The notes under the pieces: model-generated
Seen by the model: the letters and a program-made list of their open reading frames with translations, nothing else
Told to the model about the DNA's origin: nothing
Database searches by the model: none
Assembly: GCA_934102335.1 (NCBI GenBank)
Contig: CAKOSP010000001.1
Location: forward strand, 110,197-174,196
Origin: an uncultured Bacilli bacterium
Lineage (GTDB): Bacteria; Bacillota_I; Bacilli_A; RF39; UBA660
DNA length: 64,000 bases
Reading direction: 5' to 3'
Position numbers and translations under genes: made by a program
Part shown: one piece after another, positions 24,830-64,000 of the stretch
Layout of the letters: every line of letters starts with the position of its first letter
Numbering within the stretch: the first letter of the stretch is position 1

Positions 24830-24858
24830 AGCCGATAGGCTTTTTTTTTTTTTTTTTT
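24830..24858 (+). terminator. Short GC hairpin (AGCC-gata-GGCT) followed by an 18-nt poly(T) homopolymer
   Basis: Read directly: tttttttagccgataggc plus T18. Confidence 0.6.
24841..24858. repeat. T18 homopolymeric tract immediately upstream of the conserved leader of surface-protein paralog P1
   Basis: 18 consecutive T. Candidate slipped-strand (phase-variable) tract. Confidence 0.8.
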
Positions 24859-24907
24859 CTATGATATTATGAGTATATAATAGGAATGGAAAGTGCAAAA
24901 TATGAAT
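24859..24907 (+). promoter_or_regulatory. Conserved leader/promoter region shared at nucleotide level with 52836-52884 (upstream of paralog P3)
   Basis: ctATGATATtATGAGTATAtaATaGGAATGGAAaGTGCAAaATATgAATATGAAA versus ttATGATATcATGAGTATAgtATgGaAATGGAAgGTGCAAcaATATaAATATGAAA. Roughly 85% identical by eye. Confidence 0.6.
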
Positions 24908-27103
24908 ATGAAAAATAAAAAAATTATCGTAACCTCAATAATAGTGGCAGTGCTGGTAGTGGCAACTTTGGGAGCAACTTATGCCTACTTTCAAGCAAGT
25001 ATTGGAACGGGATCAAGTACAAGTACAAAAGTAACGGCATCCACTTTGGATTCTCTAACTTTTGCAACAGGTAATGCTATAACCTTGGAAGCTAATCAAA
25101 CCAATTTTGCAAGTGGAAAGACAAATATAACAGGTACAACTTCAGCTAAGGCAACACTTACATCTAATGATGCTAGTAATACCTCAACTGAACATTATAA
25201 TTTGTTTTTGAATATCTCAGATAATAACTTTAAATATAGTGTAAGTGAAAGTACACCAGAATTACTTCTTACAATAAAAGATGGAGATAATAATGAAGTA
25301 ACTAGTATAACAGGACTGGAACATAAAACCGTAACTGATGGAAAAGGAAATCAAATATCAGGATTTGATGTAACAACAAAAACAGGATTAATAACAATAT
25401 TAAATAATAGAGAGATAACGGCATCACCAACAAAAGAAGAAACATGGAATGTAACTGTAACATTTGTAAATTATGCAAAAGATCAAACTGGTAATGAAAA
25501 TAAAAGTTTTGAAGCCCAAATATTAATTACAAAAGATGATTTTAATTCCTATTCACCAAATATAATAAATTCATTAAGTGTAACAAGAAGTAGTGGAAAT
25601 CTAACAGTAAAACTAAACTTAAATGAAGGAACAGATGAAATAGATAAATATTATTTTGCAATAAAAGAAAAAGATAGCTTGGCTATGACAACTAATAAAA
25701 AAAGTAAAGTCATGATGTTAAGTAATAAAACACTTGCAGAAAACTCATTAACATATGTAGAAAGTAGCACAAACACTCATACCTTTAGTAATATAAGTGA
25801 TAGTGGAGAATATGAAATATATGCTTATGCGGTAGATAAAAAGAAATTAAAAACTAATACATATAATTATAGTTTAACATCAAGTAGTTATACTTTACCT
25901 GTGATAAATAGTGTAACTACAACAGCCTCTGATAGTAGTATAAAAATAGATGTAAGTGCCACAAAGGGAAGTAATGCAATATCAAAATATTATTATTCAA
26001 TAGATAGTGGAAACACATATGTAGAAAGTACCTCAAATAGTTATACATTTACAGGATTAAAAAGTGGAATAAACTACCGGATAATAGTTAAAGTAATTGA
26101 TAGTAACAACAAATATTCGAATATATATGTAGTTAATGAGAAAATTGCTGCCAAACAAACTTTGGTAGAGTATGTAGTAGCTCAATATAGTGGAACACAA
26201 GGAAATAATGGAATATATTATCATGATGGAAGTTTAGAAAATGGAATATCAGATAATTCATATAGATATTCAGGAGCAAATCCAAATAATTATGTATGTT
26301 TTGGATTTGATGTTACAAGTACCAATAAGTGTCCAACTGATAATTTATATCGAATAATTGGAGTTATTGATGGTAAAGTTAAATTAATAAAATATGACCC
26401 TACTACAAATGGAGCAGCTGGCGGAGAAGGGGTGGGTTCCTATGCTTACGTTGGTGAAAATTCGGAGGATGATGTAAATTATGATGGATATAATAAATTT
26501 TCCATTTGCTATAAAGGAGAATATGATGCATATTATTGGAATACTTCTCAAGCGGGAAATTCTACAAATTCCAATGATTGGGACGAAAGTAATTTAAATT
26601 TTGTTAATTTAAATTCAGTGTTTTTATACACATTTTCTGACAAATGGATTAATAAAATATCTAGAATTAATTGGTGGAAGCCTGGGATAAATTATAGTAA
26701 TTTTGGAAATTATAGTGATTATCAAATTAAATATTTACATAGATATGAAACAACAGGTGCAATAAGTGCAAATGACCAATATAAACTTGGATTAATGGAT
26801 CTTGCAGATTTTTATATGGCTTCTGAACCATTAGCATGGGAAGTCACATGGGGAAATTGGGATTCTAAAATATATGCTAATTGGATGAATAGATGTATGT
26901 ATGAATGGACAATGGTTAGAGAAATTGATGAGGAAAGTGGTAATCATTCTGCTATAGGTATAAATAACTACGGCTATGGATTTAATTATTGTACTGTAGA
27001 TTCAGATTATACTTTTGCAATAAGGCCAACATTTTATTTAAATACTACTGTAAAATATGTATCTGGCAGTGGAACATCAAGTGATCCAATAATTATTGAT
27101 TAA
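24908..27103 (+). CDS. Surface protein paralog P1. N-terminal signal-anchor. Conserved N-domain shared with P3/P4. Two FN3-like inserts. Conserved C-terminal module.
   Basis: MKNKKIIVTSIIVAVLVVATLGATYAYFQA... FN3-like SIDSGNTYVESTSNSYTFTGLKSGINY. C-terminal FAIRPTFYL...GSGTSSDPIIID. The alternative ATG at 24902 or GTG at 24893 are possible starts. Confidence 0.7.
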   Translation: MKNKKIIVTSIIVAVLVVATLGATYAYFQASIGTGSSTSTKVTASTLDSLTFATGNAITLEANQTNFASGKTNITGTTSAKATLTSNDASNTSTEHYNLFLNISDNNFKYSVSESTPELLLTIKDGDNNEVTSITGLEHKTVTDGKGNQISGFDVTTKTGLITILNNREITASPTKEETWNVTVTFVNYAKDQTGNENKSFEAQILITKDDFNSYSPNIINSLSVTRSSGNLTVKLNLNEGTDEIDKYYFAIKEKDSLAMTTNKKSKVMMLSNKTLAENSLTYVESSTNTHTFSNISDSGEYEIYAYAVDKKKLKTNTYNYSLTSSSYTLPVINSVTTTASDSSIKIDVSATKGSNAISKYYYSIDSGNTYVESTSNSYTFTGLKSGINYRIIVKVIDSNNKYSNIYVVNEKIAAKQTLVEYVVAQYSGTQGNNGIYYHDGSLENGISDNSYRYSGANPNNYVCFGFDVTSTNKCPTDNLYRIIGVIDGKVKLIKYDPTTNGAAGGEGVGSYAYVGENSEDDVNYDGYNKFSICYKGEYDAYYWNTSQAGNSTNSNDWDESNLNFVNLNSVFLYTFSDKWINKISRINWWKPGINYSNFGNYSDYQIKYLHRYETTGAISANDQYKLGLMDLADFYMASEPLAWEVTWGNWDSKIYANWMNRCMYEWTMVREIDEESGNHSAIGINNYGYGFNYCTVDSDYTFAIRPTFYLNTTVKYVSGSGTSSDPIIID

Positions 27104-27128
27104 AAAAATAAAATTTTTAAAAAATCTA

Positions 27129-62635: not shown

Positions 62636-62660
62636 TTGACGATTGTCAATTATTTTTTTA
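62634..62660 (+). terminator. Terminator after pnp
   Basis: AATTGAC-gat-TGTCAATT plus T7. Confidence 0.7.
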
Positions 62661-62723
62661 TTGCAATAAAACTATGATTTTGCTATAATTTTTATAGAGT
62701 AGAAAGATGGAGTCTGATATAAA

Positions 62724-64000
62724 TGGAAGATTTAAATGGAAACGTTGCAAAAAAACATCGTAATACTAAACTTATAATAATTGTATCTTGTATTTTGGTT
62801 ATAGCAATTGGAACGACTTATGCTTTTTTAAACCCCGTTACAGGAAAGGCTTGGTTTTGGCCTTTTGATACTACCGCAGAAACCGTGGATGATTTACAAT
62901 TTGATACTACTGCATCAGCTTATTTGAGTATGGATTATAGTAAATATGACACATATGCTCAAGGTTATTTTGATGAAAAAAGTGTAACTGCCACTGCTAA
63001 ATTCATTAGAGGTAATTATACATCGGAGACAGTAACTAAAAAGTATTCTGGATATGTATATATTTCAGAAAATCAATTTGAATATGTTGATGAGACCTAT
63101 CCAGAAGCCATTATGACTATTACTGATCCTTCTGGAAATGCCGTTACTAGTATAGAGGGGTTAACCTATAAAACTATAAATAACGGTACAAGCTCTATAT
63201 CAGGATTTGACATAACAGGTGTGGTAGGCAAGTTATCATTTGCCAGTGATTATGAAATATCAGTGACTGGATCAGAAAAAGATAAAGCTACTACCCATAA
63301 TTGGATAATTAAAGTAATAATCCCGGTTTACAAGAACTCTTTAAAAATAGACCAAAGTACAAACGAAGGAAAACATTTATCGGTTGGAATCGTAATGGGC
63401 CAAACTAATAGCAGTGGTAATTTAGTAACCAATTTAGGTGACACTTTAATAGCACTTAATGGTGGATTAGAATATATTAATTCAAAAGGGCAATATAAAG
63501 AATTATATGCTCCTCAGTACATTTATACATTAGAACCAGCTGAAGAACAATCTATATCCCTAAGTGCTGGTTTAAACTTTTCTTCATCTTATTCCTATGA
63601 TGAAAAAACTGGAAAAATAACTTTAAATAATGCTTATGGATATCCAAATAATCAATTGCCAGCCCATAAGGATTTAATAGTTGGAAAATACATATCAAAT
63701 CCTACATCTAATGATTATATATCTGCCAGTGGAGATAAAAATATCGAAGTTAATAATTTATATTATGTAACTTACTATGATGGAACAACTCTTAAATATT
63801 TATCAAGATCGTCAACAAGATCAAGTTTAGATAAAATTACTGATCAGGGAATGTTCGCTATACCAGATACACTTGGAACCTCTTACTTTTTTAGAGGAGC
63901 GATAGAAAATAACTATTTGACTTTTGCTGGTTTAAACTGGAGAATTGTAAGAATTAATGGCGATGGTTCAATCAGATTAATATATGCAGATAAAGGTACG
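62724..64000 (+). CDS. Surface protein paralog P4 (3' partial, runs off the window). Mosaic of a P1/P3-like N-domain and a P2-like core module.
   Basis: KLIIIVSCILVIAIGTTYAFL. ETYPEAIMTITDPSGNAVTSIEGLTYKT...ISGFDITG. GTSYFFRGAIENNYLTFAGLNWRIVRINGDGSIRLI. Extended -10 TGCTATAAT upstream. Confidence 0.65.

Follow-up and report, generated by a model that had tools for sequence, protein, structure and literature searches.

A lineage-specific superfamily of predicted surface proteins with DUF6273, C-type-lectin-like heads in RF39-like gut Bacilli

We analyzed a 64,000-nt stretch of DNA (the window) from an uncultured RF39-like Bacilli bacterium (assembly GCA_934102335.1, contig CAKOSP010000001.1, positions 110,197 to 174,196), which encodes four related multidomain proteins, here P1 to P4, that are candidates for surface-exposed binding proteins. 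The window is AT-rich (25-31% G+C) and nearly all genes lie on the plus strand. A first-pass annotation had singled out the four genes as a mosaic family of anchored surface proteins and as a possible undescribed system. The four open reading frames (ORFs) are real and intact, and their coordinates stand for P1, P2 and P3, but P4 starts at 62723, not 62724.

P1 (24908..27103, +) encodes an intact protein of 731 amino acids (aa), with an alternative GTG start at 24893. It opens with a leader and hydrophobic helix bearing the motif TYAYF (~24908-24991; match to the family leader profile SP, 8e-11), followed by a jelly-roll N-domain (~25001-25552; profile N, 8e-73), two FN3-like repeats (~25571-26182) and a DUF6273-like C-domain (~26207-27097; profile C, 2e-65). 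The C-domain contains a segment of normal G+C (26915-27028) equivalent to the variable repeat (VR) of a diversity-generating retroelement (DGR) found in a relative. The two inserts are present as first described and homologous to each other (internal repeat E 1e-8), but their likeness to FN3 in Pfam is weak (E 0.014). P2 (39846..41051, +) is shorter (401 aa, intact) and combines a signal-anchor-like N-terminal helix, a short beta-rich N-part (residues ~35-160) and a P2-type DUF6273-like core (~40338-41048).

P3 (52885..54504, +) encodes 539 aa in an intact ORF; the family alignment makes an upstream ATG at 52846 the less likely start. Its leader and helix end in TYAFL (52885-52974) and precede a jelly-roll N-domain (~52981-53550) and a DUF6273-like C-domain (~53611-54501) with a VR-equivalent segment at 54316-54429. 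The window end cuts P4 (62723..64000, +) after the first 426 of 599 codons. P4 has a TYAFL leader, a P1/P3-type N-domain (~62870-63394; profile N, 1.5e-30), a middle region of ~150 aa with no assigned fold and a P2-type core from ~63836 (core profile, 1e-44). Its full length is given by a homolog (P0256, 599 aa) that is 99% identical and is followed by vanY (minus strand), ffh and lepA.

Sequence comparison confirms P1 to P4 as a real paralogous family whose similarity is far above chance, with pairwise BLASTP E-values of 4e-50 to 2e-18. The ~200-aa N-domain ascribed to both P1 and P3 is indeed common to them (47% identity over 214 aa, E 4e-50), and their C-domains are 32% identical over 323 aa (E 2e-32). 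P4 was likewise correctly seen to join a P1/P3-type N-domain to a P2-type core, as BLASTP, hhalign and profile matches agree. The N-domain of P4 matches those of P1 (30%, E 6e-23) and P3 (29%, E 1.5e-15), and its core matches P2 at 59% over 49 aa in the window fragment (E 2e-18) and at 34% over 233 aa (E 8e-31) when full-length P4 is used. P2 and P3 are weakly similar by BLASTP (27% over 188 aa, E 6.5e-4), and the profiles of the P2 and P1/P3 families align by hhalign with a probability of 97.5% (E 6.3e-12, 383 columns) from the leader to the C-terminal G.GT...PY.I. Because the BLASTP pairs and this profile-profile link connect all four, we place them in one superfamily. Domain shuffling between members is one reading of the make-up of P4; a single tree of the form ((P1,P3),(P2,P4)) fits equally well if the N-part of P2 was replaced or diverged fast. 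The C-terminal motif said to be common to the complete copies holds for P2 (GVRPVINI...GKGTIDEPYVI) and P3 (GIRPVFNL...GSGTKTVPYFL), but P1 has a variant (AIRPTFYL...GSGTSSDPIII) with AIRP...DPI instead of GIRP...PY.

The core shared by the four proteins, first put forward as a possible undescribed system, is, as judged from homologous sequences and a predicted structure, a divergent member of the catalogued family DUF6273 (PF19789) with a C-type-lectin-like head. PF19789 is matched by 17 of the 77 aligned homologs (best E 1.3e-4), and precomputed PF19789 matches exist for two P2 orthologs (P0137 and P0140, 63-64% identical) and for several relatives of the P4 core. An AlphaFold2 model of P3, built from a 77-sequence alignment (mean pLDDT 74.8), contains a helix (residues 7-31), an unconfident segment (32-48), a beta-sandwich (50-220) and a mixed alpha/beta domain (245-539). 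When structures were compared, the predicted head proved to match in fold both a solved DUF6273 domain and the superfold of C-lectins and the formylglycine-generating enzyme (FGE). DUF6273 is C-lectin-like, carries a C-terminal VR and serves ligand binding in phage DGR targets (PMC10743442; bioRxiv 10.1101/2024.10.15.618418).

A 581-aa metagenomic protein (P0356) carries the P2/P4-type core motif, with 68% identity over 12% of P4, and has a precomputed Pfam match to N_methyl (the N-terminal motif of type IV pilins). Judging from this sequence, a pilin-like scaffold may carry the same head in other proteins.

Some relatives carry a DGR next to a family member. Reverse transcriptase (RT)-like ORFs were screened by motif in the family loci, and two loci were picked, L043 and L082, from two different Hadza metagenome-assembled genomes (MAGs). 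The L043 member has the full architecture of N- and C-domain (ORF 28-1464, 5' end cut). The 3' end of this gene contains a VR (1291-1390) that is repeated over 100 nt, with 83% identity, as a template repeat (TR, 1718-1817), and downstream lie a 114-aa Avd-like ORF and a 359-aa RT; the DGR extends over 1291-3788. All 17 of the 17 differences between VR and TR fall at TR adenines, and the VR has a G+C content of 57% compared to 26.5% for the locus. It encodes ISRAADDAYGAFRVYSTGYVDGTYANSALAVRP, directly before the conserved G[IV]RP motif. By these sequence features, the L043 member is a canonical DGR target. L082 (1169-3148) has the same RT and a TR of which only 31 nt remain intact, and may be a decaying DGR.

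The segment rewritten in L043 is also where the family varies most. Across 82 paralog C-domains, entropy averages 1.59 bits and rises to 2.5-2.7 bits in the intervals that start at hidden Markov model (HMM) positions 226 and 241. This peak (HMM positions 226-255) overlaps the L043 VR (HMM positions ~224-258). The diversity of the window copies comes from paralogy, with no DGR in the window.

The family is large. Of 8000 candidates scored against P3, more than 4389 are homologs at E<=1e-3, and most of those listed are full-length and ~40% identical. P2 has 848, with lengths of 395-411 aa among those listed and a mean column identity of 61% in the aligned subset; it apparently behaves like a conserved single-copy ortholog. 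No source gives a family name for the P3 or P2 homologs. Relatives are encoded in 530 stretches of species-representative genomes, and the best 80 of these are nearly all from gut MAGs labeled 'uncultured Bacilli' or 'uncultured Tenericutes', together with Firmicutes bacterium CAG:460 and Clostridium sp. CAG:609. Such gut MAGs belong to RF39/RFN20-type lineages (PMC7301438, PMC10868615). In these best 80 loci, up to 10 family ORFs occur per MAG (CAKOKR 10, CAKOND 9); the counts are lower bounds, and some ORFs may be fragments of one gene. Tandem clusters of members occur in three loci (L052, L076 and L049). The window organism is also found in Hadza gut metagenomes, on a 656-kb contig. A typical member is encoded on a 3.3-kb contig (L047, CAZGKC010000053.1) in an 'uncultured Muribaculaceae' MAG; this contig was probably mis-binned and stems from a low-GC Bacilli genome.

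The N-domain of ~200 aa is predicted to be a jelly-roll without a convincing relative, and a relationship to TasA is not supported. Its profile matches 979 clusters (at 50% identity) among 1.84 billion representatives, of which 829 fall below 1e-10. In nearly all of the best 150 matches listed, the domain starts at residues 22-33, right behind the leader, and the proteins of these best 150 of the 979 clusters are 150-970 aa long.

All four proteins have the Lys-rich start and hydrophobic segment of ~19-20 aa noted at first, but TYA[YF][FL] is limited to P1 (TYAYF), P3 and P4 (both TYAFL); P2 has a looser G..Y.FY (ICYIFYD), and the leader consensus of its family is GVGYLFYDK. The pattern [STAGC][YFW][AGS][YFW][FLMI] occurs in 77 of 90 full-length members from the loci, where it closes a hydrophobic stretch of ~19-20 residues after 2-4 Lys; TYAYF is its commonest form. 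A prepilin-peptidase site (G↓F/M-x-x-x-E) is absent, the leaders reading M-(E/K)-x-K-K-...-hydrophobic without G↓F or Glu+5. Likeness to type IV pilins is insignificant: a search of PDB sequences with the family profile gave a single archaeal pilin match (E 6.9), and one homolog has a sub-cutoff match to Pilin_N (E 0.006).

The hosts are walled, as genes for PBP2b, murG, murB, mreC and prsA are present. No LPXTG, SLH or other wall-binding signal was found in P1 to P4 when the C-termini were inspected, that of P4 via its homolog P0256. They end in GSGTSSDPIIID (P1), DEPYVIVPIESE (P2, EPYVIVPIESE), KTVPYFLK (P3) and GTVDDPFIVQ (P0256). The N-terminal helix is the sole candidate anchor but may be cleaved off, and judging from its sequence the leader could be either a cleaved signal or a retained membrane anchor.

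The gene context given by the first-pass annotation is correct: the copies follow the recombinase/ASCH island (P1) and dnaJ (P2), lie between trmD and a putative rimP (P3) and follow pnp (P4). To this we add a CotE homolog, orf138 and orf95 between trmD and P3, and orf702 and orf301 between P1 and valS. The idea that the copies are accessory insertions does not hold up. Comparison with syntenic loci shows that at least two of the slots, and the pair of P2 and orf162, are conserved in distant relatives, whose members at ~33-41% identity hold the same slots as the window copies. The order family member-orf702-orf301-valS recurs directly in L042 and with two small genes between in L057, and trmD-orf138-orf95-family member recurs directly in L076 and with the member at a distance of 5 kb in L012. 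L018 likewise has the pair of P2 and orf162 (41% and 43% identity), and in L085-L087 the gene next after the P2 ortholog encodes 159 aa. In L028 and L017, the first family member downstream of pnp is 3.5-9 kb off and not adjacent. A further position is found in L001-L004, where a member is placed after mraZ-rsmH-ftsL-pbp2b. Because the slots are conserved and the G+C of the four genes is the same as that of their surroundings, we regard them as old chromosomal residents and reject recent insertion.

P1 and P3 are each preceded by the hairpin and T-run of the upstream gene and share a 5' leader of ~45 nt (24860-24907 and 52837-52884) that reads TATGATAT[TC]ATGAGTATA...AATGGAA and includes a -10-like box. 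This leader could be a common promoter or regulatory leader, and from their sequence context P1 and P3 look like separate transcription units between operons. P2 and P4 have no similarity to it. A promoter and terminator scan around P3 was uninformative (19 sites compared to 16.5 expected).

Several neighbors accompany the family. Downstream of P2, orf162 (41137..41625, +) encodes a small membrane protein without a Pfam match that is its conserved partner. The membrane proteins orf702 and orf301 (27531..30477, +), whose ORFs overlap on paper, follow P1 in the gene order seen in L042 and L057. The former has only a sub-threshold DUF6520 match and the latter no Pfam match; they might have a functional link to the family or reflect mere synteny. 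The pair orf138 and orf95 (52071..52777, +) is kept between trmD and the member in L012, L076 and L027, and orf95 (52490-52777) encodes a 95-aa protein in which a single Listeria-Bacteroides repeat (Flg_new, E 5.5e-13) accompanies one transmembrane helix.

Upstream of P1, the interval 22252-24340 of the window contains a large serine recombinase (Resolvase, Recombinase and Zn_ribbon_recom domains) and, behind it with an 8-nt overlap, the CotE homolog. This 144-aa homolog of outer spore coat protein E lies between the recombinase and ASCH and matches PF10628 with 90 bits against a cutoff of 25. Another CotE homolog is encoded upstream of a member in L074. Downstream of P3, the putative rimP ORF before nusA (54529-54849) is short, with 106 aa from a TTG, and may encode a truncated RimP. 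The ORF in the rimP position of L088 has 82 aa as called and no Pfam hit on record.

We propose, with a probability of roughly 60%, that P1 to P4 are Sec-exported surface ligand-binding proteins, either adhesins or receptors, from a lineage-specific superfamily with diversifying C-lectin heads. The Lys/Arg-rich N-terminus and the hydrophobic helix of ~19-20 residues ending in [ST][YF][AS][YF][FL] would direct export, and surface exposure would follow. As the sequence offers no other attachment device, the helix most likely stays in the membrane as an anchor; its aromatic motif could form an interface belt at the outer end if this signal-anchor helix remains uncleaved. A tether of ~20 residues, poorly ordered in the model, would lead to a jelly-roll beta-sandwich stalk, extended in P1 by the two FN3-like spacers and in P4 by the extra middle domain. 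The stalk would project the C-terminal DUF6273/C-type-lectin-fold head from the cell surface. Ligands, presumably molecules on host or microbial surfaces (glycans or proteins, for example), would be bound by the last beta-hairpin and loops of the head, just before G[IV]RP. Specificities would be diversified mainly by gene duplication and divergence, with four copies in 64 kb and up to at least 10 per genome in relatives. In some relatives, DGR mutagenic retrohoming rewrites exactly this last hairpin.

A number of observations weigh against this proposal. Pfam and NCBIfam scans of P1 to P4 give no match reaching threshold and no PF19789 match even at E<=1, so the domain assignment depends on family-level matches and the predicted structure. 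An RT-like ORF, a TR/VR pair and a match to the L043 TR are all absent from the window, and the VR-equivalent segments of P1, P2 and P3 show ordinary G+C and no VR-like sequence; the link of the window copies to DGRs is therefore one of homology only. The resemblance of the leader to a SipW-type model at the family level means that the proteins may be cleaved and released instead of anchored. P2, apparently single-copy, is conserved well beyond what one would expect of a diversifying adhesin and may have a different role; it may bind a fixed ligand or have a housekeeping function in the envelope.

Cleavage of the leader would lead to other fates for the proteins. LepB could cut after ...G-A or ...T-Y-A and free soluble lectin-like proteins for nutrient or glycan capture, or as decoys for phages or IgA, and we consider this unlikely. 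P1, P3 and P4 do have small residues at -1/-3 (LGA↓T, TYA↓Y/F), LepB-type peptidases are encoded in relatives, the proteins have no cell-wall anchoring motif, and a DUF6273 domain occurs in a secreted IgA protease (PMC12402451). However, the hydrophobic segment is long, the aromatic motif is conserved far beyond the needs of a generic Sec cleavage site, and P2 lacks small residues at -1/-3 and a plausible site. A released head would also be of no obvious benefit to a small-genome bacterium. Quite improbable, in turn, is a TasA-like fibre whose subunits are cleaved after T-Y-A by an archaeal/ER-type (SipW) peptidase encoded elsewhere in the genome, which would expose a donor strand of ~20 residues and build lectin-decorated fibres. 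The leader likeness to SipW-dependent proteins, part of the first-pass annotation, is borne out only at the level of the family: of 10 family N-termini, nine have a listed match to TIGR04088 (cognate_SipW), the NCBIfam model of the SipW-dependent-type signal peptide (cutoff 19 bits), with scores of 12.6-20.8 bits. Two of these exceed the cutoff, and an assembled family consensus reaches 21.8 bits. The N-termini of P1, P2, P3 and P4 have no listed match to this model. The predicted family leader also has the length of the TasA leader (~27-28 residues), and residues 32-48 of P3 lie outside the folded domain in both AlphaFold2 models. TasA assembles by donor-strand exchange (PMC9674648). A TasA/camelysin-type protein is not supported by the mature domain, which fits neither the fold nor the profile; Peptidase_M73 is matched weakly by 3 of 77 members, and the N-domain family is sharply bounded, unlike the broad TasA/camelysin superfamily. 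The reported absence of sipW from the window is upheld by motif search and BLAST, which found no SipW-like peptidase there or in ~1.4 Mb within ~10 kb of family loci; this result is tentative. The only signal peptidases found near the family loci are LepB-type enzymes in L012 and L016, at a distance of 8 kb from a member. A sipW gene usually adjoins those of its substrates, as in tapA-sipW-tasA. The same adjacency is seen for sipW and bsaA (PMC7395162).

The most far-reaching version, a new kind of Gram-positive surface fibre with a SipW-cleaved leader, jelly-rolls polymerized by donor strands as in TasA and archaeal bundling pili, and varied lectin heads, is very doubtful. If true, it would describe an adhesive filament with programmable, multivalent binding, its heads varied by paralogy and, in some strains, by DGRs. 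Least credible of all are receptor-binding proteins of a prophage or mobile element, inserted as accessory cargo. DUF6273 is chiefly familiar as a domain of gut-phage DGR targets (PMC10743442), the serine recombinase lies 1 kb upstream of P1, and one IMG/VR contig bears a member. Against this, that contig is one of 2.9 million, compared with 530 confirmed stretches of bacterial genomes, there are no phage structural genes nearby, the shared slots and unremarkable G+C speak for residence, and the N-terminal leader has the features usual for exported proteins of cells. With a single viral contig bearing a member, we reject a phage origin and favor the interpretation as cell-surface binding proteins.

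Human and animal guts commonly contain RF39-like Bacilli, which are uncultured, have small genomes and seem to depend on their environment (PMC7301438, PMC10868615). Knowledge of their attachment to hosts or partners is minimal. This family probably provides the principal set of binding proteins that they expose, and it supplies candidate adhesins or receptors, phage receptors and strain-variable antigens. It also offers a cellular role for the poorly understood DUF6273 and a new N-terminal stalk domain for which Pfam has no model. In the literature, we found no description of the combination of a SipW-like leader, a new jelly-roll and a DUF6273 head, of a restriction to RF39-like gut Bacilli or of the large number of paralogs.

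By analogy, the proteins may be likened to the C-lectin-fold variable proteins of DGR systems and to lectin-type adhesins, which implies no new mechanism or system. SipW-dependent proteins (TasA, TapA, CalY/camelysin and BsaA) have a similar leader layout that ends in T-[YFW]-A-[YF]-F, and their mature N-terminal part is likewise a beta-sandwich. They differ in that no sipW was found near the window family, and in that its large lectin-fold head has no counterpart in TasA. Gut-phage DGR targets with DUF6273 (tentaclins, Mtd-like) share with the window proteins a C-type-lectin-like head with the variable binding segment at its C-terminal end, as well as FN3/Ig-like spacer domains. In contrast to the phage targets, the window proteins are cellular, their head is C-terminal behind a signal or anchor helix and a novel jelly-roll, their copies have no DGR and are sub-threshold in Pfam, and their diversity arises by paralogy. 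The IgA protease of Thomasclavelia ramosa (PDB 9qa6; PMC12402451) has an N-terminal DUF6273 fused to an M64 metallopeptidase and an SPXTG sortase motif, whereas the window proteins have no catalytic domain and no sortase signal. More distant is TvpA of Treponema denticola (PDB 2y3c, 12% identity), a DGR variable protein with the C-lectin/FGE fold; it is a lipoprotein of the FGE-sulfatase subtype, whereas the window genes are not linked to a DGR.

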